Positions 19,100 through 37,448 of a stretch of DNA of 64,000 nt are shown piece by piece. Within the stretch, counting starts at the first letter, position 1. The number at the start of each line of letters is the position of its first letter. Under the pieces are notes generated by a model. It was given only the letters and a program-made list of their open reading frames with translations, did no database searches and had not been told where the DNA came from. Source of the DNA: Verrucomicrobiia bacterium (GTDB lineage Bacteria > Verrucomicrobiota > Verrucomicrobiia > Limisphaerales > UBA1319); the NCBI GenBank assembly GCA_963664225.1, contig OY760937.1:3456001-3520000 (forward strand), in the 5' to 3' direction. The position numbers were made by a program, and so were the translations under genes.

Positions 19100-19146
19100 C
19101 GTAGCGCAGACATCCTGTCTGCCGTATCGCGGATTTCCAATCCGCC
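19100..19146. repeat. GTAG-type REP doublet (intact IS110 target site)
   Basis: cGTAGc-GCAGACA-tcc-TGTCTGC-cGTATc-GCGGATT-tcc-AATCCGC. The same element occurs at about 32872 and 34067 and is split by the IS at 31117/32315. Confidence 0.85.
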
Positions 19147-25272: not shown

Positions 25273-25662
25273 TAAACCCGGTCCTTCAGAGTCCTCGCAT
25301 TATCGCCCTCCGTCACCGCAGTTCGTAGCGCAGACACCGTCGCTGTCGCATCGCGGATTTCCAATCCGCAAACTCTGAACAAATCAGACCATCCTCAGAT
25401 GCAAAATCGATTCCACTCGACAACTCCACCGTTACTAAATACACATCGCAAGCCGGCTGGTAACCGGCGCCACGGAGCCAGGCGCAAGTTCGGTTGGCCT
25501 TGCCGCGTTACACCGCAATCCCCCCGGGTTTCGCGTAACCAGGCTGTTGAATTCATCCCGTTCAATGGCTCCATCAACAAAAAGTGAACCTTTCCCCGCT
25601 CAAACGTTATTAACGGGCAGACTGGATCGCGACGCCAGAAACACGGTAACGAAAATATGCTT

Positions 25663-27631: not shown

Positions 27632-28203
27632 AACCTTGCGTCGAAAACCAAAAACGAATCGCGTTGCTGGCAGTGAACGCTCTGGAGTCGTCAGAGGCCC
27701 GCGAACTCCGCGCGCATCTGGAGGTTTGCAGTGGTTGCCGCCAATACCACCAGGAAATCGCGCGTGTCACCACCGCGCTGAACGCGTCGGCGCCATCCGC
27801 AGAGACCGAGGTTTCCGAGGCCTTCCATCGCCGGGTGGCCAATGCCGTGAGGGCTCAGAAGACCACCTCTGCGTGGGAGGAAACAGTCGATTTGCTGACC
27901 GGCCGCGTGTGGAATTGGCGCGTCGCTCTTTCGGGTTGTGCGGCGGTGGCTCTGGGATTCGCCCTCCTTTCACATTTCCAGCAGCCAACCCCTGTTCAGA
28001 TTGCTAAAGTAACGATCGCTCCGACCGTAACGGTTGCCGACACCGAGATCGACCTCGAGCCCTCCATTCGCAACTACCAAATCGCCGCCAATCGTTCTTT
28101 TGAAAAGTTGGATGAGCTGCTCACCAAACAAGCGCGGCAAAATCCCTCGTTTGCTCCCGCCTATACCGCTTCGTCATTGGCGCTGGCCAATGGATCGGAA
28201 TGA
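27628..28203 (+). CDS. Zinc-finger (zf-HC2) membrane anti-sigma factor
   Basis: HLEVCSGC (HxxxCxxC) plus one TM segment; overlaps the sigma stop (ATGA). Confidence 0.85.
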   Translation: MKPCVENQKRIALLAVNALESSEARELRAHLEVCSGCRQYHQEIARVTTALNASAPSAETEVSEAFHRRVANAVRAQKTTSAWEETVDLLTGRVWNWRVALSGCAAVALGFALLSHFQQPTPVQIAKVTIAPTVTVADTEIDLEPSIRNYQIAANRSFEKLDELLTKQARQNPSFAPAYTASSLALANGSE

Positions 28204-28232
28204 TGGACCGGAATGACCGGGACGCTCCACAA

Positions 28233-28853
28233 TCATCCCCTTCTCAACCGCCTTTTCATATCCACAGCCGGATAGATATAGCGCACCTCGGCTGCGGGAT
28301 ATTCAATGGGCTGATAAGACACATTCAGGCTCTCCAGGCGGATCACGCTCCCCTCGGGTCCCGTCCGCCGCAGCCGCTTGAAGAGCACTCCCGAGCTGTT
28401 CGCCAGTCGGCACACCACGAAATCCCCGTTTCTCGGCTCCACGTTGGGCGCGAACACCACCAGATCCCCCGCGTAAAACTCCGGCTCCATCGAATCGCCC
28501 TCGAGTATCAGCGCAAAGGAGTTCGCATCCCGGCAATCCGTTTCCACCGAGTCATCAATCTGGTTGCAGAGATCCCCGTAATCCAGCGCCTGACCCGCCC
28601 GGGCCCAGGAAACCACCGGCACCCGCCGTGGAAACTCCTGGTTCACCCGCACGATCCGCGATTCCCCCACCGCCAGCTCCACGTTGCGCAACGCCTGCAA
28701 AAGCTGCGCCGAGGCCTTCTGATACCCCCGCGCAATCTTGCGCATGGTTTCGGACTTGATCGCCACCCGCGCCGCCAGTTCGTCGGGGGCCAGCCCCGTT
28801 CGCCGGCAAATACCGGCAATCTCATCGGCCTGAGCCTGGAACTTGATGATCAT
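28233..28853 (-). CDS. LexA/phage CI-like repressor (HTH + S24 autopeptidase)
   Basis: N-terminal HTH (TGLAPDELAARVAIKSETMRKIARG), VPVVSWARAG cleavage site, GDSMEP (Ser), FKRL (Lys) and LESLN. Confidence 0.9.
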   Translation of the reverse strand: MIIKFQAQADEIAGICRRTGLAPDELAARVAIKSETMRKIARGYQKASAQLLQALRNVELAVGESRIVRVNQEFPRRVPVVSWARAGQALDYGDLCNQIDDSVETDCRDANSFALILEGDSMEPEFYAGDLVVFAPNVEPRNGDFVVCRLANSSGVLFKRLRRTGPEGSVIRLESLNVSYQPIEYPAAEVRYIYPAVDMKRRLRRG

Positions 28854-28876
28854 AGTTAAAAAAGTGCGAACCGCTC

Positions 28877-28919
28877 TTGACAGTGTCACAATAAGACTTA
28901 TTATAGTCTTATTATGACA
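28877..28919 (+). promoter_or_regulatory. Sigma70 promoter overlapped by a long palindromic operator between divergent regulators
   Basis: TTGACA at 28877; TATTAT at 28899 or TATAGT at 28902; inverted repeat TGTCACAATAAGACT-tattat-AGTCTTATTATGACA (14 of 15 arm positions match). Confidence 0.75.
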
Positions 28920-29279
28920 AACGCCACTTCTCCTAATCAACTCCTAAACTCCGCTCAAGTCAAACAGAATAAGCCGTTAATCCACAAATCCGCCGCATCG
29001 GACAGTCTTAACAAGTCTATCGCGCGTCTCAATACGCCAACTCCTCCGGATTTCGATTGGCAGTCTCTCGTTCCCGCCAAAAACCTCCTCCGCGTGCAGG
29101 AAGTCGCCCACATGCTCTCCTGCTCGGTCGATCACGTCTATAACCTGCTCGAGGAAGGCGCCCTGAAAGTCGCCGTCGATATTCGCACCCAGGGCGCCCG
29201 CCGTTCCTGTCCCCGCGTGCTCCGCGCCAGCGTCTTGGAATTCCTCCAGCGCAGCGACCTGGCCAAAAAATGTGTCTGA
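28914..29279 (+). CDS. Excisionase/HTH_17-like DNA-binding protein
   Basis: LLRVQEVAHMLSCSVDHVYNLLEEGAL...RVLRASVLEFL winged-HTH pattern; divergent from the CI-like gene. Confidence 0.8.
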   Translation: MTNATSPNQLLNSAQVKQNKPLIHKSAASDSLNKSIARLNTPTPPDFDWQSLVPAKNLLRVQEVAHMLSCSVDHVYNLLEEGALKVAVDIRTQGARRSCPRVLRASVLEFLQRSDLAKKCV

Positions 29280-29414
29280 AACCAGCCGGGCATCAGACCG
29301 CATCAGGAAAAGGAAAACCACGCACAGGGGGTCGTCGAACCCAGCGCGAATACCAATCCGCCAACCGTCTCAAACCCACAGTCCACGGCCGAAATCGCAA
29401 AACTTAATCCATGT

Positions 29415-29740
29415 GGCGCCGTCACCGCAACTCGTAGCGCAGGTTTCCAATCTGCAAACGCTGAAATGCAAGAGCGCATTCCAATCTTCACGCGTCTGTA
29501 AAACCGCAAGTGGAGCGCCGGTCTCCAGACCGGCTTACCGCTCTGAACCCTCAGCAACCCAAAGCACAGTCACCGTTACTGCCGTTACGCAGCCACCCCA
29601 CCTGCTTGCGCATCCAAACCGCAACTCGTATCGCAGATTTCCAATCTGCAAACGCTGGAACGCACGGGCGCATTCCAAACTTCACGAGCGCGCAAACCCC
29701 AATGCTGCGCGCCGTCACCGCAACTCGCATCGCAGCTTGC
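29415..29740. repeat. Degenerate REP-family copies
   Basis: ccgcaactcgta(g/t)cgcag(g/a)tttccaatctgcaaacgctg near 29425 and 29619, plus a partial copy near 29710. Confidence 0.7.
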
Positions 29741-29846
29741 ATCATCCGTTGGTTGGTCGTCTTTTTTTCGACTACCCTCGAGCCGATTTACCAGGAGCAT
29801 GAACAATGCGCGCTATAGGAAAAGTGCGCAGTGACGATACACAATT

Positions 29847-30707
29847 GTGACATGCAAGTTCCATCAAATGGTCTGTCTCGGCTTATGGCTGATTCATGCG
29901 GGAATTCCCCAGCATGCGCAGGCCGCGCTGGCGCCCGAAAAACTCTACCAAAAAGTGCTGCCTTCGGTGATGACCTTGGAAGTGGAAAACCAGACCGGGC
30001 AGAGGTTTGTAGGCAGCGCCGTGCTGGCCCGTGCAAATGATGTGGCGCTGACGGCCTGGCACGTCATCGCCGATGCGCGTTCCGTTTGGGCCGTGTTCGC
30101 TGACGGCCAGCGCGTCAGAGTGATTGGGTGCATCGACCATAACGGCGTCCGCGATCTGGCATTATTGAAACTGGAAAAGAAACTCCCCCGGCGACAGGCG
30201 ACTTTATGCCCTGACCTGCAATCTGTGGCGGCCCGGGCTTACGTGATCGGCGCACCCAAAGGTTTTGATTTTAGCATCGGCGACGGCTTGATCAGCCAGG
30301 TTCGGAGCATAAACGGATTTCTGCAGTATCAGCTTTCCTGTCCCATCTCTCCGGGAAATAGCGGGGGCCCAATCCTCAACAATCGTGGTGAAGTCATCGG
30401 CATTGTCTCGTGGACCAAGACGGACGCGCAGAACGTGAGCTTTGCCATTCCAGCCCGGGAATTCATGGGACTTAACGTTTCCCTGCCGCCGAGGACTTGG
30501 GGGGAAATGGCGGCCAGCGCAAGCTCCTTCCCGTCTCCCAAGTCGGGTAAATCGGGTCATAAACCGGCCATGATGTCCGAAGACGACGCCGATGCCAGAA
30601 CCTACGCAGCCTTCAAGAGTCGGCTCAAAGAATCCGCAGGCAAGACCGTGACCGTCGTTCTCCAAGAAGAAGCGCGAACAAACACATTCACGTTTACGGT
30701 CAAGTGA
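29847..30707 (+). CDS. Trypsin-like serine protease (S1C/HtrA-like catalytic domain, no obvious PDZ)
   Basis: LTAWHVI (His), DLALLKL (Asp) and ISPGNSGGP (Ser); N-terminal signal-like segment. The start is uncertain. Confidence 0.85.
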   Translation: MTCKFHQMVCLGLWLIHAGIPQHAQAALAPEKLYQKVLPSVMTLEVENQTGQRFVGSAVLARANDVALTAWHVIADARSVWAVFADGQRVRVIGCIDHNGVRDLALLKLEKKLPRRQATLCPDLQSVAARAYVIGAPKGFDFSIGDGLISQVRSINGFLQYQLSCPISPGNSGGPILNNRGEVIGIVSWTKTDAQNVSFAIPAREFMGLNVSLPPRTWGEMAASASSFPSPKSGKSGHKPAMMSEDDADARTYAAFKSRLKESAGKTVTVVLQEEARTNTFTFTVK

Positions 30708-31139
30708 TAAATATCTGAATTGGCACATATTGGTTTCAATGCGTTACCACATTATAGGCCGGGTGCCCTCACCCGGCGTCCGTTGAATTGCCCCCCCGAA
30801 CGCCTTTCTCTGGGCGCGGCCTTTGAGGGTTTTGTATGGAGTCCCGTCTTTAGACGGCGCAGCATTCAAAAGGAGGGAAGTTTGAATATTTCTAACCCTC
30901 TCGATAATCCGATGACCTGCTCGAATTCGTAAAACCCACCATTATTCTATTTTCCAATCAAACGATTCCCTTCAAGCATCCCGGCAGGGATCGCAGACCC
31001 TTTTCAATGAGCTCGCGTCCCGCCCGGTCAATCGCAATCAAAATCTCCATCGGACCGCCACGTTTATCCACCTTCTTGCGCGTCCAAACCGCAACTCGTA
31101 GCGCAGACATCCTGTCTTGTATGTTTGAATTTGCCACTT

Positions 31140-31350
31140 GTTTGTTGGTTCGCGTTGAACAAGAAAGAAGTGGTGTCCCTTCCCCGCCTGCAGGCGGGGA
31201 AGGGACGGCGGACGCGTGTTCGTTCCAATCTTGGTCTGGTGAAAGCCAGACCGTACGGCAGCATGAATCGCGCTCGCCTTTGTCCGAAACTCGAACCGTT
31301 ACCAGAGCGGCGTGTTACAACGCCAGCTCGTATTTGCAAGAATGAGTCCG
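31140..31350 (+). ncRNA. Putative IS110 bridge RNA
   Basis: 5' hairpin (perfect 32-nt palindrome, 31175-31206), then two stem/internal-loop/stem modules whose loops match the target and donor sequences. RNA ends are approximate. Confidence 0.8.
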
Positions 31351-31365
31351 AACAACTTTAATATT

Positions 31366-32304
31366 ATGACTGAAAAATCCGCCCCTGTCCATGTCGGTCT
31401 GGACGTCGCCAAGGCCACTCTCCAACTTCACCTTCCCGGACGGCTCCTGGACGTGACCAACGATGCGGCGGGGCACACACAACTGGTCCAATGTCTGGGT
31501 GCTGTGCCCGGTGCCCACGTGATCCTCGAAGCCACTGGCGGCTATGAGCGTGCCGTCGTGGCGGCACTTCACACGGCCGGTTTACCCGTCAGCGTGGTCA
31601 ACCCGGCCCAGACCCGTGCCTTCGCCCGCGCCACCGGCCAGCGGGCCAAGAGCGATCCGATCGATGCTGCCAGCCTGAGCGCCTTCGGCAAGGCCCTGGA
31701 GCCCGCTGCCACCACCGCCCCGACGCCAGCCCACACTGAGCTCACCGCCCTGGTGACCTGGCGCGAACAACTCAAAGATCTCCTGACCATCGCCAAAAAT
31801 CAGGCCGAACACCACGACTCACCCTTCGTCCGCACCGAACACGCCAAGCTGATACGGCATCTGGAAAGCCGTTTGGCCGCAGTGCTGGCCGAATTAACCG
31901 CCGCCCTGGCCCGCCACGCCGTCGAGCAAAAACAAGTCACCCGCCTGGCGGAAATTCCCGGCGTGGGGATGCTGACGGCCGTGACGGTAGTGGCGCAGAT
32001 GCCCGAACTGGGAACCCTCAACCGGGGCCAGGCGGCAGCCCTGGCGGGGCTGGCCCCGTGGGTGCGCCAGAGCGGCCCTTGGGAAGGCCAGCGTCACATT
32101 GGTGGCGGCCGGACCGGGGTGCGCCGCGCCCTCTACATGGCCTCCGTGGCAGCGGTGCGCTGCAATTCCATCCTCAAGGCCTTTTATAAGAGGCTGCGGG
32201 CGGCGGGCAAGAAGCCCAAAGTGGCGCTGACAGCAGTGATGCGGAAACTCATCGTATTGATGAATCATGCCCTAAAAGATCCCAGATTCTGTGTTGCTCC
32301 ATGA
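31366..32304 (+). CDS. IS110 family transposase/recombinase (DEDD RuvC-like + Tnp_20 domain)
   Basis: VGLDVAK, LEATGGYE, KSDPIDA (DEDD); IPGVG, AGLAPWVRQSG (catalytic Ser), RRALYM and AVMRKL. Confidence 0.97.
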   Translation: MTEKSAPVHVGLDVAKATLQLHLPGRLLDVTNDAAGHTQLVQCLGAVPGAHVILEATGGYERAVVAALHTAGLPVSVVNPAQTRAFARATGQRAKSDPIDAASLSAFGKALEPAATTAPTPAHTELTALVTWREQLKDLLTIAKNQAEHHDSPFVRTEHAKLIRHLESRLAAVLAELTAALARHAVEQKQVTRLAEIPGVGMLTAVTVVAQMPELGTLNRGQAAALAGLAPWVRQSGPWEGQRHIGGGRTGVRRALYMASVAAVRCNSILKAFYKRLRAAGKKPKVALTAVMRKLIVLMNHALKDPRFCVAP

Positions 32305-34496
32305 CACCGTTGCTGCCGTATCGCGGATTTCCAATCCGCCAACCGACTCAAACTCGCAAGGCGCAGAACTTCATCCTACGGCATGCAGAAACGCCATAAA
32401 ACGCCATCGGAGCGCCATTTCGTAAAACCTACCAAACTGCGTGCCCCCCCACCCGCTGGCTCGCTATCAAAATCCACCACGGATCGCCACGTTTATCCAC
32501 CTTCCAAACCGCCCAATTAACCGCTCGACTTGCGGAACTTTCAATTCCTCAATTATCCATCATTTCTTCCCACGCCAAACCCACTGGCGCGCGGCCTTTG
32601 AGGGTTTTGTATGGAGTCCCGTCTTTAGACGGCGCAGCATTCAAAAGGAGGGAAGTTTGAATATTTCTAACCCTCTCGATAATCCGATGACCTGCTCGAA
32701 TTCGTAAAATCCACCATTATTCTATTTTCCAATCAAACGATTCCCTTCAAGCATCCCGGCAGGGATCGCAGACCCTTTTCAATGAGCTCGCGTCCCGCCC
32801 GGTCAATCGCAATCAAAATCTCTATCGGACCGCCACGTTTATCCACCTTCTTGCGCGTCCAAACCGCAACTCGTAGCGCAGACATCCTGTCTGCCGTATC
32901 GCGGATTTCCAATCCGCCAACCGACTCAAACTCGCAAGGCGCAGAACTTCATCCTACGGCATGCAGAAACGCCATAAAACGCCATCGGAGCGCCATTTCG
33001 TAAAACCTACCAAACTGCGTGCCTCCCCACCCGCTGGCTCGCTATCAAAATCCACCACGGATCGCCACGTTTATCCACCTTCCAAACCGCCCAATTAACC
33101 GCTCGACTTGCGGAACTTTCAATTCCTCAATTATCCATCATTTCTTCCCACGCCAAACCCACTGGCGCGCGGCCTTTGAGGGTTTTGTATGGAGTCCCGT
33201 CTTTAGACGGCGCAGCATTCAAAAGGAGGGAAGTTTGAATATTTCTAACCCTCTCGATAATCCGATGACCTGCTCGAATTCGTAAAATCCACCATTATTC
33301 TATTTTCCAATCAAACGGTTCCCTTCAAGCATCCCGGCAGGGATGCCAGCGATTAGCCGGGGGTCGAGGTCGTCCGCGACCGACACCCCCGGACACCCAA
33401 CCCAACCAACACGATCCCGGCAGGGATCGCAGACCCTTTTCAATGAGGTCGTGCCTCCCCGCCCGGTCAATCGCAATCAAAAGCTCCGTAGGAGCGTCAT
33501 GTTTATAGAAATCCAACAACCACGATATTCAAGCTCCAGAGGACCGCCACGTTTATCCACCTTCCAAACCGCCCAATTAACCGCTCGACTTGCGGAACTT
33601 TCAATTCCTCAATTATCCATCATTTCTTCCCACGCCAAACCCACTGGCGCGCGGCCTTTGAGGGTTTTGTATGGAGTCCCGTCTTTAGACGGCGCAGCAT
33701 TCAATAGGAGGGAAGTTTGAATATTTCTAACCCTCTCGATAATCCGATGACCTGCTCGAATTCGTAAAACCCACCATTATTCTATTTTCCAATCAAACGA
33801 TTCCCTTCAAGCATCCCGGCAGGGATGCCAGCGATTAGCCGGGGGTCGAGGTCGTCCGCGACCGACACCCCCGGACACCCAACCCAACCAACACGATCCC
33901 GGCAGGGATCGCAGACCCTTTTCAATGAGCTCGCGTCCCCGCCCGGTCAATCGCAATCAAAAGCTCCGTAGGAGCGTCATGTTTATAGAAATCCAACAAC
34001 CACGATATTCAAGCTCCAGAGGAGCGGCATGTCCATCCACCTTCTTGCGCGTCCAAACCGCAACTTGTAGCGCAGACATCCTGTCTGCCGTATCGCGGAT
34101 TTCCAATCCGCCAACCGACTCAAACTCGCAAGGCGCAGAACTTCATCCTACGGCATGCAGAAACGCCATAAAACGCCATCGGAGCGCCATTTCGTAAAAC
34201 CTACCAAACTGCGTGCCTCCCCACCCGCTGGCTCGCAATCAAAATCTCCATCGGATCGCCACGTTTATCCACCTTCCAAATCGCCCAATTTCTGTTTTTT
34301 TTCTCCATTGTCCATTGTCAATTATCCATTCCCCCTCCCCCCCCATCCTGCACATCCTGTCTATCCATGTGGGCTTGCTTTGTGCTTCCATTTGAATAGC
34401 CCCTGTCCTCAGTTTTTTGTCCTCCCCGCTCCCGCAAATAAATCACTTGATGTCTTGCCTGTGAGGTGTTTTTGGGAATAAAAAGAACGAATCGCT

Positions 34497-37448
34497 ATGA
34501 AAATGACCCATCCACGCCACTGGATTTATTCGCTGATATTGTGCGCCACCATTCTGGGCATTGCGCGGCCCAACCCGGCCCCTGCCGCGCCAGCAGCGCC
34601 TCAGACGGACGTCGAACCCCTGCGCGCCCAATGGATCTGGCTCAACCGGCGGGACGTGTACGATTACAACCAGACCATTATTCTGCGCAAATCGTTCCGC
34701 GTTAGTGATGCCGAAAAAGCAACCCTCCGCATCACGGCGGATAGCTACTATCGCGTCTTCATCAACGGGCAATGGGTCAACGACGGCCCCTGCCGGAGTT
34801 GGCCGGAGCATTTCCAGTTCGATGTCATCGATGCCGCGCCTTACCTGGTCAGCGGCGCCAACGAGATTCGCGTCATCGCGCGCTATTACGGCGTGGGCGA
34901 TTTTCATCATGTGCCCCGCCAGGCCGGCTTCCTGGCCCAACTCGACGTGACGCATGGGAGCAAGGTCATGAGCATTGTCAGTGACAGTTCCTGGGAAGCC
35001 GCCAATGCCCCCGCGTGGACCCAGAACACCCCCAAGGTCAGCATCCAGATGGAGGCTTGCGAACTCTACGATGCGCGCCTCGAGGACTCGCTTTCCTTCA
35101 AGCACGCCGCCGTCCTCTACGACGCCGACAAGGGGCCGTGGAAGGACCTGAGCGCCCGCGACACCGCCCTGCTCACTAAGGAACCGGTCTCGTTCAAAAC
35201 ATTTCTCGGCGCAAAAGCCGTGCGCGCGGATGGTTGGGATTTCTGCCTGCCCGCGGCGCGTTTGGTGCATCCCGGTCTCATCGAAGCCAATCACAATGCC
35301 AGTTGTGCCAGCGGAATGGCGACCCTTCTCAACGCACAAACCGATTGCACCATCGAGCTTCAAAACGACGGCATGCGCATCAGCGTCGATGGCCAGATGG
35401 TTGATAACAAGCCGCTCAAAGTCACCGCAGGCACGCACATGGTCCTCGCATTGGTCAGCGATATTTACGGTCACAACAAGGAAAAGGCCGTGGGTTTCAT
35501 GAATCCGAAAGGCTTCACCCTGGAGAATCCCCTGCGCGCGGGCGAAGAAAACCCGTGGTGTTTCATCCGTTTCCCCGAGTTTGCCTTGGCCGACACCGAT
35601 CTGCAATGGCCCTCGTTCAGGACCGAAGGCTCGCCCCTGGGAAAAGCCGCCAGCGGTTACGACCAGGCACGCACGGAGTTATTCAAACAGGTGAAGGATG
35701 CCGACACTTTCAAGCAATTCGCAGGCAAGCGCGCGGAATTGATGGCCAGTGACAAAATGTTCGTCAAAGATACCTTCTGGCAGTTCACCCAGCGCAAACC
35801 CGTCGGCGACGCCACCGCGCTGGTCCGTAATCCCTCCGGTTTGCTCTACAACACCCCGGAGTCCACAGTCGTCAGCCCCTCGCCCCAAGGCGACGTGGAA
35901 CTGCTCTATGATCTGGGCGAGCAGCGCTGCGGTTACTATCAATTCGATCTGATGGCCGACGCCGGCGTGCAGGTGGACATCTACGGCATCGAATACATCA
36001 CCCCCGAAGGCCGCCTGCAGCACAGTTGGGGAAACCGCAATGGCATGCGCTACATCACCAAAGAGGGCGTGAACCATTTCACCTCCCTCAAGCGCCGCTC
36101 CGGTCGCTATGTGTTCATCACGTTCCGCAACTTGAAGACCCCCGCGCGCATCCGGGAGTTTAAGGTGATCGAATCGACCTACCCCGTTCAATACGCCGGC
36201 AGCTTCCGTTGCAGCGATGAACGCCTCGCCCGTATCTGGGACATCTCCACACGCACGCTCAAGCTGTGCATGGAAGACACCTTTACCGATTGCCCGCTTT
36301 ACGAGCAGACCCATTGGGTGGGCGACGCGCGCAACGAATCGCTCCTCGCCTACGGAGTTTTCGGGGCGGGTGACCTGGCCCGCCGCTGCATCGACATCAC
36401 GGCCCAATCCCTCGAGCGTTACCCGATTGCCGGTTGCCAGACGCCCTCCTGCTGGGAATGCCTGCTGCCCGCCTGGAGTTTCCTGTGGGGCATTTCCACC
36501 TGGGACCATTACGAGGCCACGGGCGACAAGGAATGGCTCCGAAGCATCCAACCGGCGGTCCTGAAGAACTTGAAAGGCGCGGAGCAATTCGTGAATGACC
36601 GCGACCTGTTCAGCGGGCCTTTCTGGAATATGTTCGACTGGACCGGCGCGGACCAGGGACAAAAAACCGTCCTGCACAACAGCATGTTCATGGTCGGCGC
36701 GATCGATGCCGCGTTGAAGGAAGCCGATGCGCTGGGCGATACATCAAACACCGCATGGCTGAAAGCACTGCGCGCCCGCCTGGTGGGCGGCATCAACAAG
36801 CTCTGGGATCCGGTGAAGCAGTCCTATCCCGACGCGATTCGGGATGATGGCACCATCAGCCCTTCCATCTGCCAGCACACCAGCTTTCTGTCCCTGCTTT
36901 ATGACATTGTGCCCAAAGACAATGCCGCCGCCGCGCTGAAGAACCTCACCGCTCCGCCCGAGAAGATGGTCCGCATCGGCTCCCCCTTCGCGGTGCTCTA
37001 TCTCTACGAGACATACGAGAAACTCGCCATGGAGGATCAGATCGTCAGAGAGATCTACACCAACTACCTGCCCATGGTCGAAAGCGGCGCAACAACCGTC
37101 TGGGAGAGTTTTCCCACCGGCACCACCGGCAGCGGCGGTTTCCCCACCCGCAGTCATTGCCACGCCTGGTCCTCGGCGCCCTCCCGATTCCTGAACCGGA
37201 TCATCCTTGGCGTGAAGGAAACCTCGCCCGGCGGCGCCTCGGTAACGATCAGCCCACGAGTCAACCGGTTGACTTGGGCCCAGGGCACCACTCTCACCGC
37301 TCGCGGACCCGTGGATGTAAGCTGGAAACTCGAAGACAAGACGTTGCGCGTGAATTACTTGGCACCTGAAGGCACCAGGGTGGAATTCCTGAAAAACAGC
37401 AGCCACGAAGGCTTGAAACTCGTGGTAAACGGTAAACCGGTTGAATGA
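34497..37448 (+). CDS. Alpha-L-rhamnosidase-like glycoside hydrolase family 78
   Basis: Signal peptide, ITADSYYRVFING, DLGEQRCG, TDCPLYEQTHWVGD, GATTVWE and SHCHAWS. Confidence 0.9.
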   Translation: MKMTHPRHWIYSLILCATILGIARPNPAPAAPAAPQTDVEPLRAQWIWLNRRDVYDYNQTIILRKSFRVSDAEKATLRITADSYYRVFINGQWVNDGPCRSWPEHFQFDVIDAAPYLVSGANEIRVIARYYGVGDFHHVPRQAGFLAQLDVTHGSKVMSIVSDSSWEAANAPAWTQNTPKVSIQMEACELYDARLEDSLSFKHAAVLYDADKGPWKDLSARDTALLTKEPVSFKTFLGAKAVRADGWDFCLPAARLVHPGLIEANHNASCASGMATLLNAQTDCTIELQNDGMRISVDGQMVDNKPLKVTAGTHMVLALVSDIYGHNKEKAVGFMNPKGFTLENPLRAGEENPWCFIRFPEFALADTDLQWPSFRTEGSPLGKAASGYDQARTELFKQVKDADTFKQFAGKRAELMASDKMFVKDTFWQFTQRKPVGDATALVRNPSGLLYNTPESTVVSPSPQGDVELLYDLGEQRCGYYQFDLMADAGVQVDIYGIEYITPEGRLQHSWGNRNGMRYITKEGVNHFTSLKRRSGRYVFITFRNLKTPARIREFKVIESTYPVQYAGSFRCSDERLARIWDISTRTLKLCMEDTFTDCPLYEQTHWVGDARNESLLAYGVFGAGDLARRCIDITAQSLERYPIAGCQTPSCWECLLPAWSFLWGISTWDHYEATGDKEWLRSIQPAVLKNLKGAEQFVNDRDLFSGPFWNMFDWTGADQGQKTVLHNSMFMVGAIDAALKEADALGDTSNTAWLKALRARLVGGINKLWDPVKQSYPDAIRDDGTISPSICQHTSFLSLLYDIVPKDNAAAALKNLTAPPEKMVRIGSPFAVLYLYETYEKLAMEDQIVREIYTNYLPMVESGATTVWESFPTGTTGSGGFPTRSHCHAWSSAPSRFLNRIILGVKETSPGGASVTISPRVNRLTWAQGTTLTARGPVDVSWKLEDKTLRVNYLAPEGTRVEFLKNSSHEGLKLVVNGKPVE

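Follow-up and report, generated by a model that had tools for sequence, protein, structure and literature searches.

A probable IS621-type bridge recombinase element of the IS110 group at a REP-like hairpin in a Verrucomicrobiia bacterium

IS621 of Escherichia coli (PMC11208160, PMC11208158) is the described insertion sequence most like the element analysed here. According to PMC11208158, the left target guide of its bridge RNA occupies A50-U58 and is followed by the linker U59, and its left donor guide is 8 nt long (A123-C130); the concept of handshake bases also comes from this work. Longer right target guides are reported for some orthologues, and extension of the right guide is reported to improve specificity (PMC11208160). 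The long end of these elements lies on the left in the IS110 group and on the right in the IS1111 group (PMC11208160), and IS1111 elements have subterminal inverted repeats (PMC11187229). A third point of comparison is provided by ISPpu10 and ISPpu9 of Pseudomonas putida, which insert into a multi-copy extragenic palindrome (bioRxiv 10.64898/2026.03.19.712850; PMC12288879). A target stem-loop adds specificity for ISPpu10, as described in the 2026 preprint (bioRxiv 10.64898/2026.03.19.712850).

The window, by which we mean the whole 64,000-nucleotide stretch of DNA that was analysed, contains a complete IS110-group insertion sequence of 1197 bp at 31118-32314 on the forward strand. It consists of a 248-nt left end, a gene for a 312-aa DEDD/Ser recombinase and a 10-nt right end; the first-pass annotation had drawn the same limits and the same left end, and these are confirmed. 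The open reading frame is at 31366-32304, and there is a CT on both sides. The features of the locus are as follows.

31103..31117, +: left half of the interrupted REP-like hairpin, with the 5' arm GCAGAC (31103-08), left target ATCCTGT (31109-15) and CT core (31116-17)
31120..31125, +: TATGTT, putative -10 box of a promoter that would form only from joined ends; TA..T pattern conserved in relatives
31133..31174, +: first 5' stem-loop, from the minimum free energy fold; equivalent hairpins precede the start of the covariance model in Verrucomicrobia-labelled relatives
31175..31206, +: second 5' stem-loop, a perfect hairpin of 14 bp with a 4-nt loop, from the fold
31207..31278, +: target-binding module (outer stem, internal loop, inner stem-loop), from the fold and covariance (helices 3 and 4)
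31223..31231, +: candidate left target guide UUCCAAUCU, 9 nt (7 nt plus CU core), from the register scan, cognate comparison and flanks of the other copies
31233..31252, +: inner stem-loop of the target module, GGUCUGG / loop UGAAAG / CCAGACC, from the fold and covariation
31254..31261, +: candidate right target guide UACGGCAG, 8 nt (6 nt plus the core complement AG), from the register peak and cognate comparison
31262..31263, +: putative target-loop handshake dinucleotide CA, complementary to donor positions 7 and 6 (G32312, T32311)
31290..31346, +: donor-binding module (outer stem CUCG/UGAG, internal loop, inner stem 31305-13/31320-29), from the fold and covariance (helices 5 and 6)
31295..31302, +: candidate left donor guide ACCGUUAC, 8 nt, from its match to the right end
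31332..31340, +: candidate right donor guide AUUUGCAAG, letters and pattern as IS621 A157-G165 (PMC11208158)
31341..31342, +: putative donor-loop handshake dinucleotide AA; A31341 is complementary to the T at target position 7 (31115)
31366..32304, +: recombinase gene, 312 aa, from Pfam PF01548 and PF02371 and the alignment to IS621
32294..32299, +: TTGCTC, putative -35 box inside the end of the gene; TTG at a fixed distance from the right end
32305..32314, +: right end, with left donor ACCGTTG (32306-12) and CT core (32313-14)
32315..32339, +: right half of the target, with right target GCCGTA (32315-20) followed by a second REP hairpin, GCGGATTTCCAATCCGC (32323-39)

The genome holds five full-length copies of the window element, four of them identical and one with three substitutions, and the similarity among the five ends exactly at 31118 and 32314. 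The CT core is present at both junctions (31116-17 and 32313-14). All five copies are flanked by CT and lie at the same position of one family of REP-like hairpins, and their outer flanks differ. The lack of terminal inverted repeats, the CT core at both junctions and the sequence-specific insertion are properties of the IS110 group, as is a left non-coding end (248 nt) that is longer than the right (10 nt). The window element resembles IS1111-group seekRNA elements in its transposase type and in a guide RNA that selects the target (PMC11187229), but is assigned to the IS110 rather than the IS1111 group because its RNA precedes the gene and its right end spans only 10 nt. It appears to be an intact, recently active and autonomous member of the IS110 family. 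Of 23 public runs listed, four were compared with the element, and all are assembled contigs. A joint in these four that skips 1197 letters was considered as an empty site or excision and rejected, because its shorter side is only 18-28 letters and uninterrupted copies of the repeat exist elsewhere in the genome.

The recombinase matches PF01548 over residues 10-148 (E 9.4e-18, 64.9 bits against a cut-off of 29) and PF02371, the C-terminal transposase domain with a conserved serine, over residues 192-275 (E 8.5e-18). Residues 9-303 align to the IS621 transposase structure 8wt6 with an E of 7e-34 in local alignment, which indicates a distant orthologue of the IS621 recombinase; the protein also aligns to ISCro4 (E 8.4e-33). 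The catalytic candidates D13, E55, D97, D100 and S236 occupy conserved columns that match the five catalytic residues described for IS621 (PMC11208158), and S236 falls on the ESGS serine of IS621 (S241 as numbered in PMC11208158). The first-pass annotation had called the 312-aa protein compact, but its length is not special: IS110-family proteins range from about 300 to 460 aa (PMC11208160), and the PDB chain of IS621 is 328 residues long.

The left end is organized as 5' stem-loops followed by two stem/internal-loop/stem modules. As the first-pass annotation had suggested, it was folded and a covariance model was examined across relatives. The minimum free energy is -108 kcal/mol (z = -6.3), with none of 200 shuffles as stable, and the perfect hairpin at 31175-31206 and both modules, stems included, were recovered where they had been placed. 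The outer stem of the first module pairs 31207-31222 with 31264-31278, and the arms of its inner stem (31233-39/31246-52) are bordered by the linkers U31232 and G31253. The covariance model, built from the window element and two paralogues, gave a near-full-length match (at least 140 aligned nt) on the same strand just 5' of the gene in 55 of 80 related loci. In the alignment fitted to this model, which contains five spurious opposite-strand or partial rows, 92.2% of cells pair and both sides change in 48 of 50 pairs, as compared with 36-46% paired in slid controls; in helices 1 and 2 both sides change among relatives at all 14 pairs. A variable first loop and a conserved second loop, located after a 5' stem-loop, also correspond to the left end of the IS110 group. 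An Rfam scan of 30500-33000 returned six chance-level matches (E up to 10; best 20.6 bits against a gathering score of 40), none of them to a bridge RNA family, so no curated family was available for comparison.

Within the target loop, the left target guide UUCCAAUCU has the sense of the target top strand and therefore pairs with the bottom strand. The right target guide pairs instead with the top strand, its letters TACGGCAG (31254-61) being an exact reverse complement of CTGCCGTA. Register scans gave sole peaks at offset 0 for both guides, reaching 5.54 of 9 identities for the left guide over 41 relatives, with CU directly before the inner stem, and 6.87 of 8 for the right guide, whose position had been called correctly from the outset. 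Loop bases were then compared with insertion sites in 49 distinct, though not independent, relatives, 8 rows being without a left limit and 18 without a right limit. Outside the core, left guides agree with the left flanks of their own elements at 4.17 of 7 positions as compared with 1.99 for non-cognate pairs (n=41), and right guides agree with their own right flanks at 4.94 of 6 as compared with 1.74 (n=31); neither cognate value was reached in 5000 permutations. Element limits of single-copy relatives were set by motif rules, two being corrected by hand. The left limit followed a T+TGT[AG]/TGCA rule, which replaced placement from the right donor guide because the latter often gave wrong places, especially in the Alphaproteobacteria-labelled group.

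The same covariation is evident within the genome itself. Two paralogous families, B and C, are 93% identical to each other, and their left ends differ at 19 of 178 columns, 10 of which fall within the 17 target-guide columns (Fisher p 2e-7). Their flanks differ in keeping with these target-guide differences, and the sister families have a common donor loop and different target loops. These patterns suggest that the loop letters serve as guides for target choice by base pairing.

The site occupied in the window belongs to a repeated host hairpin. The uninterrupted target 16-mer occurs three times in the window (at 19111, 32883 and 34077), as compared with 0.02 expected. The repeats around the element are dispersed and not head-to-tail, and Tandem Repeats Finder found nothing on 28000-37000. 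The first-pass annotation's proposal of a bispecific RNA aimed at such a hairpin is supported by the five copies, all of which are at the same hairpin position. With an unchanged RNA, the element has inserted next to three left targets (ATCCTGT, TTCCAGT and TTCCAAC), which among them have 0, 1 and 3 non-wobble mismatches to the left guide. UUCCAAUCU pairs with 9 of 9 positions of TTCCAACCT, the target of two other copies (8 Watson-Crick pairs and one U·G), and in the canonical register there are 8 identities with the target of each of the other four copies. For the copy in the window, agreement between the left guide and the adjacent left target is limited to 6 of 9 positions, or 4 of 7 when the core is left aside.

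On an alternative view, the site would be determined mainly by the long right guide and by the protein's recognition of the REP hairpin's shape, the left guide adding only a preference. The three targets do maintain the hairpin by compensatory changes (GCAGAC..GTCTGC, GCAGGT..ACCTGC), and GCCGT is retained in all of them. The sequence 5' of the left target is likewise complementary to the left target and folds into a stem-loop in ISPpu10, where the stem is also kept through compensatory changes among target variants and contributes to specificity (bioRxiv 10.64898/2026.03.19.712850). The REP family and host are unrelated to those of ISPpu10 and ISPpu9, and for the window element a role of the hairpin is suggested by five insertions only. 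Sites throughout the genome were scored on 15 positions after the copies had been removed in silico. Two of 3 sites with 14 of 15 identities are occupied, 2 of 20 with 13, 1 of 164 with 12, and none of 9681 with 10 or 11; the sites scoring 13 outside REP are empty. Because 164 sites score equally, the site of the window copy is not singled out by base pairing alone. Against recognition chiefly by shape, occupancy follows the match to the left guide, with small numbers: TTCCAAC is occupied at 2 of 3 sites, TTCCAGT at 2 of 5 and ATCCTGT at 1 of 9, whereas the variants ATCTTGT, TTCAAAC and TTCCAGC, which have the same hairpin and GCCGTA, are occupied at 0 of 12. Moreover, left guides covary with left flanks across the clade, and families B and C insert in pyrimidine tracts rather than in the REP-like hairpin. 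We consider it improbable that hairpin shape is the main determinant of the site.

A different left guide was proposed in the first-pass annotation: a short AUCUUG (31228-33) that pairs with ATCCTG, stops before the core and would thus be unlike IS621. The letters are present, and in the window copy alone this register performs nearly as well as the canonical one (5 identities and, with wobble, 7 pairs of 9, as compared with 6 of 9 identities). Over 41 relatives, however, the corresponding offset of +5 yields 1.83 of 9, which is background, and against the targets of the other four copies of this identical RNA it yields 2-3 identities where the canonical register yields 8 each. Half of AUCUUG lies inside the inner stem, which is conserved with compensatory changes, and paralogues B and C have no match of this type. 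From the other four copies, the two paralogous families and the scan of relatives, we conclude that the left guide had been mis-registered through a chance resemblance and that the real guide is 9 nt long and includes the CU core; a guide confined to AUCUUG is very unlikely. An offset of +6 (UCUUGGUCU) was also evaluated. With wobble it gives 8 of 9 pairs for two targets, but its identities number only 3-5 and its score over the relatives (2.59 of 9) carries no signal, so it was dismissed as a product of G/U-richness.

In the donor loop, ACCGTTAC at 31295-31302 matches the right-end donor ACCGTTGC at 7 of 8 positions, with an A opposite donor position 7 (an A·C mismatch). As described for IS621 (PMC11208158), pairing of the left donor guide extends to the first core base and no further. 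Within the right donor guide, GCAAG pairs with CTTGT through one G·T, and TGCAAG (31335-40) with CTTGTA; with two U bulged out, its AU can also pair with the two donor bases that follow. Both donor guides agree with their initial description (31295-31302 at 7/8, and 31335-40 with one G·T). In 29 of 30 relatives the target-loop handshake starts with a base complementary to donor position 7, and in 28 of 39 the donor-loop handshake starts with one complementary to target position 7. The pre-exchange partner fits in 2 of 39 and 2 of 30 relatives. The second module is not followed by a terminator and the RNA may thus run on into the gene, but a mere regulatory leader of the recombinase mRNA, acting on translation or stability and without any guide, would not need internal-loop letters that track host flanks and the element's own ends, and is the least credible reading.

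A promoter scan of the integrated copy detected no promoter-like site on the + strand. Joining of the ends would place the putative -35 and -10 boxes 17 nt apart, and 22 of 29 distinct relatives have TTG equally far from the right end; by E. coli standards the junction hexamers are weak (3/6 and 4/6 matches).

Sequence comparison shows where the element ends, how many copies there are, that its catalytic motifs are intact, that its fold is conserved and covaries, and that its guides covary with the flanks. We regard it as highly likely that the element is an autonomous insertion sequence of the IS110 group and operates in the manner of IS621. Transcription, RNA binding and recombination chemistry are inferred to proceed as follows. 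Excision would join the right end to the left end, giving a circle junction of ...ACCGTTGCT-TGTATG..., and this joint would create a promoter out of the left-end TATGTT and the TTGCTC that lies inside the end of the gene. Transcription from it would produce a bridge RNA of about 215 nt containing the two 5' stem-loops, the target-binding module and the donor-binding module. The recombinase (D13, E55, D97, D100, S236) would hold its own junction, ACCGTTG-CT-TGTAT, via the donor loop and the REP-like hairpin via the target loop, and strands would be exchanged after the CT core with the aid of the handshake bases.

Set beside IS621 as described in PMC11208160 and PMC11208158, the window element has the same domain pair and five catalytic residues, a long left end and a CT core without inverted repeats, and, after a 5' stem-loop, a target loop that varies and a donor loop that is conserved. 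The 9-nt left target guide with core and its 1-nt U linker, the 8-nt left donor guide, the letters AUUUGCAAG of the right donor guide with their G·T pair, and the TGTAT that starts the right donor sequence also correspond. Handshake bases follow both right guides, targets are of the REP type and, as predicted for the window element, a promoter spans the joined ends. The differences are the right target guide (8 nt, 4 nt in IS621), the 5' stem-loops (two, one in IS621), the right end of only 10 nt, the left donor (ACCGTTG) and target, and the host lineage, the nearest relatives of the window element being in genomes labelled Verrucomicrobiota. The sole difference in guide geometry is thus the 8-nt right target guide, a variation already published; of the departure from IS621 geometry claimed in the first-pass annotation, this part is real and the short left guide is not.

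The claimed departure was otherwise a mis-registration. Knowledge of the mechanism is unchanged. The locus contributes a well-delimited bridge-recombinase orthologue that is apparently active, comes from a host lineage distant from E. coli and has a natural 8-nt right target guide. Together with its sister families it is useful for comparing specificity rules, and these elements are candidates for screens of orthologues. It is possible, although we hold this only tentatively, that an extended right guide and a target stem-loop can offset a poor left-guide match in nature. If so, the insertions described here would support, from a natural setting, the 'sequence plus structure' logic of target choice put forward for ISPpu10, and one genome would hold a trio of paralogous elements with a shared donor loop and naturally reprogrammed target loops.

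The element occupies a unit of 1197 bp (31118-32314) inserted within a repeated sequence; three uninterrupted occurrences of this repeat lie in the window, where chance would give 0.02. The core CT is present at 31116-17 and again at 32313-14, where it forms the final two bases of the unit. Its features, with the hairpins and modules as given by the predicted fold of the left end, are:

from 31118, + strand: non-coding left end, 248 nt
31133-74, + strand: first hairpin
31175-31206, + strand: perfect 14-bp hairpin
31207-78, + strand: module 1, stem/internal-loop/stem
31290-31346, + strand: module 2, stem/internal-loop/stem
31366-32304, + strand: single ORF of the unit, 312 aa
10 nt 3' of the stop codon, + strand: right end

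The recombinase contains both IS110 Pfam domains (PF01548, E 9.4e-18; PF02371, E 8.5e-18), and its residues 9-303 align to the solved IS621 transposase 8wt6 (E 7e-34) and to ISCro4 9t56 (E 8.4e-33). By counting along the alignment, D13, E55, D97, D100 and S236 occupy the columns of IS621 D11, E60, D102, D105 and S241, the catalytic residues named by Hiraizumi et al. (PMC11208158). The first-pass annotation described the protein as compact; at 312 aa it falls inside the family range of ~300-460 aa stated in PMC11208160. Two close recombinase relatives (loci L034 and L093, 60-71% identity) come from contigs in a metagenome bin that carries the label Klebsiella pneumoniae. The label probably reflects mis-binning, because the other near relatives are all labelled Verrucomicrobiota or similar.

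The left end folds with a predicted energy of -108 kcal/mol (z = -6.3), a stability equalled by none of 200 shuffles, and the fold contains both the perfect hairpin and the two modules originally reported. A covariance model, proposed at that stage as a check, was built from three left ends (the element and the paralogous families B and C) with the guide loops kept unpaired. It matched near-full-length (at least 140 aligned nt), on the same strand and directly 5' of the gene, in 55 of 80 related loci from public genomes. In a 41-row alignment of the best model matches, which was fitted to the model itself and includes five spurious opposite-strand or partial matches, 92.2% of cells are paired, compared with 36-46% in slid controls, and 48 of 50 pairs show changes on both sides.

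The right target guide, UACGGCAG (31254-61), is the exact reverse complement of CT+GCCGTA, as first reported. The left target guide proposed at the same time, AUCUUG at 31228-33, is contradicted by the other copies, the paralogues and the relatives; at this offset (+5) the relatives give 1.83/9 identities, against 5.54/9 at offset 0. The left target guide is UUCCAAUCU (31223-31), a 9-mer that ends in CU one base 5' of the inner stem. It shares eight identities with TTCCAACCT, the target of copies 4 and 5, with a U·G pair at the ninth position, and has 8/9 identities with target TTCCAGTCT and 6/9 with the window copy's target, ATCCTGTCT.

The register was evaluated in 49 distinct rows of relatives, with the left flank available in 41 and the right flank in 31; element limits were set on the right from the donor guide and on the left from the conserved TGTA/TGCA start, and two flanks were corrected by hand. 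Excluding the core, the left guide matches its own left flank at 4.17/7 positions (non-cognate pairs, 1.99; n=41) and the right guide its own right flank at 4.94/6 (non-cognate pairs, 1.74; n=31); none of 5000 permutations matched either cognate value. When the windows were slid along the RNA, identities peaked at offset 0 for the left guide (5.54/9; 1.8-3.3 elsewhere) and for the right guide (6.87/8; 1.6-2.7 elsewhere). The rows are not independent trials since they share ancestry; the direction of the result is unambiguous all the same. The expected covariation of loops with insertion sites is thus borne out for both target guides.

The predicted RNA follows the IS621 layout described in PMC11208160 and PMC11208158 through the 9-nt left target guide that includes the core (A50-U58 in IS621; 31223-31 here), the linker after it (U59; U31232), a stem-loop between the target guides (31233-52), a G-initial linker (G72; G31253), a right target guide ending in the core complement (31254-61), two handshake bases (CA, 31262-63) and an 8-nt left donor guide (31295-31302). 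The right donor guide of IS621 consists of A157-U158, two flipped-out U, G161·T and C162-G165 (PMC11208158); that of the element, AUUUGCAAG (31332-40), has the same letters, and the donor start TGTAT is common to both. The right-donor wobble seen in the first pass is therefore present without being novel, as it corresponds to the non-canonical pair of the IS621 structure. A supposed departure from IS621, a short left guide that does not reach the core, disappears with the 9-nt guide ending in CU. The sole real difference is the 8-nt right target guide, whose greater length had been recognized correctly; the extra 5' hairpin is a small addition. Some orthologues have longer right target guides, and lengthening the IS621 guide improves specificity (Durrant et al., PMC11208160).

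Among the relatives, the base that follows the right target guide is complementary to donor position 7 in 29/30 and to the pre-exchange partner in 2/39; the one that follows the right donor guide is complementary to target position 7 in 28/39 and to the pre-exchange partner in 2/30. Judged by these complementarities, the handshake bases behave as published for IS621. The element's system is the one described by Durrant et al. and Hiraizumi et al. (2024). That IS110 elements target REP sequences has long been known (PMC11208160), and longer right guides, handshake bases, target hairpins and half-match insertion each have their own paper or preprint.

The genome from which the window comes, one contig of 5.78 Mb, has five full-length copies, four of them identical and the remaining one with three differing positions. 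All share one orientation and one insertion point within a REP-like hairpin:

copy 1 (window): left target and core ATCCTGT-CT, right flank GCCGTATC
copies 2 and 3: left target and core TTCCAGT-CT, right flank GCCGTTTC
copy 4: left target and core TTCCAAC-CT, right flank GCCGTATC
copy 5: left target and core TTCCAAC-CT, right flank GCCGTACC

The outer flanks are unlike among the copies, and the insertions are therefore separate events; the element is accordingly recent and very probably active.

The REP repeat is a pair of hairpins, and the element is inserted into the first of them, within its 3' arm. With the copies removed, the genome has 86 occurrences of the repeat's head motif, GTAGCGCAG, 30 of them in the form N2-N7-CT-GCCGTN. 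When every genome position was scored by identities to a 15-nt ideal site, occupied sites numbered 2 of 3 at 14/15 identities, 2 of 20 at 13/15, 1 of 164 at 12/15 (the window copy) and 0 of 9681 at 10 or 11/15. Sorted by left target, 2/3 TTCCAAC, 2/5 TTCCAGT and 1/9 ATCCTGT sites are occupied, and 0/12 with ATCTTGT, TTCAAAC or TTCCAGC. Occupancy graded in both ways follows guide match; pairing alone, in the 15-nt genome-wide scoring, does not single out the window copy's site. At every used site the right target is retained and compensatory changes preserve the hairpin. For ISPpu10, a target stem-loop is reported to add specificity (2026 preprint, bioRxiv 10.64898/2026.03.19.712850); the used sites fit the idea that the element's target stem-loop may do so too, but they are too few for a decision. 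The nearest relative (L024, 70% identical at the protein level) occupies a hairpin of this kind in another genome, and its guides are almost the same.

The window copy is located in one unit of a dense dispersed-repeat cluster (~30700-34400) composed of 300-nt units at spacings of 482-1775 bp, with several REP double hairpins. Elsewhere on the contig, a REP copy without the IS (near 4456936, minus strand) reads GCAGAC-ACCGTTG-CT-GCCGTATC, its 7-nt left target swapped exactly for the element's left donor; a diverged second copy of this type is found in the window near 25330-25380. Such a sequence could be a scar, for example of a deletion between two GACA stretches, one in the repeat and one near the right end of the IS, or of a one-strand or half-match exchange; it could also be a REP variant linked with how the IS end arose. 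Other REP copies (contig positions near 1761631, 216023, 2199786, 1918116 and 2568824) lack 4 nt around the insertion point, as in ..TTCCAACC-GTATC in place of ..TTCCAACCTGCCGTATC, and one of these is ~100 bp from copy 4. Without the core and the start of the right target, they would be unusable as targets.

A promoter scan found no + strand promoter-like site in the integrated copy. Joining of the ends would place TTGCTC (32294-99) 17 nt from TATGTT (31120-25); in 22/29 distinct relatives TTG keeps this spacing to the right end, and TA..T is at the -10 place in most. We infer a junction promoter across the joined ends, in agreement with that described for IS621 (PMC11208160, PMC11208158). The public sequencing runs that were compared are assembled contigs. 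On the minus strand, the scan returned one site by consensus match only (0.3 expected): TGGACA-17-CATAAT at 31391-31363, where the recombinase gene begins, with 10/12 consensus matches. It points back over the left end, and RNA from it would be antisense to the bridge RNA.

The same genome carries two paralogous IS110 families, B (three copies) and C (two), at loci L006-L010 (contig positions near 1794000, 1739000, 3172000, 2702000 and 772000). Both have ~70% DNA identity to the element and 93% to each other. They retain the element's donor loop and ends (ACCGTTG-CT-TGTATC) and have different target loops; their sites are pyrimidine-rich and not REP. B carries UUUCCUUCU and GAGGAG at the target-guide columns and is inserted at ..CCTCCTTCT/CCT..; C carries CCAUUCCCU and GGGAG there and is inserted at ..TTCCCT/CCC... 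Of 178 columns, 19 distinguish the two families, 10 of them among the 17 that form the target guides (p 2e-7). In one B copy the open frame is shortened to 285 aa, and another lacks six residues. The local interest of the system lies in one RNA used at three target variants and in three sister families in one genome with naturally different target loops.
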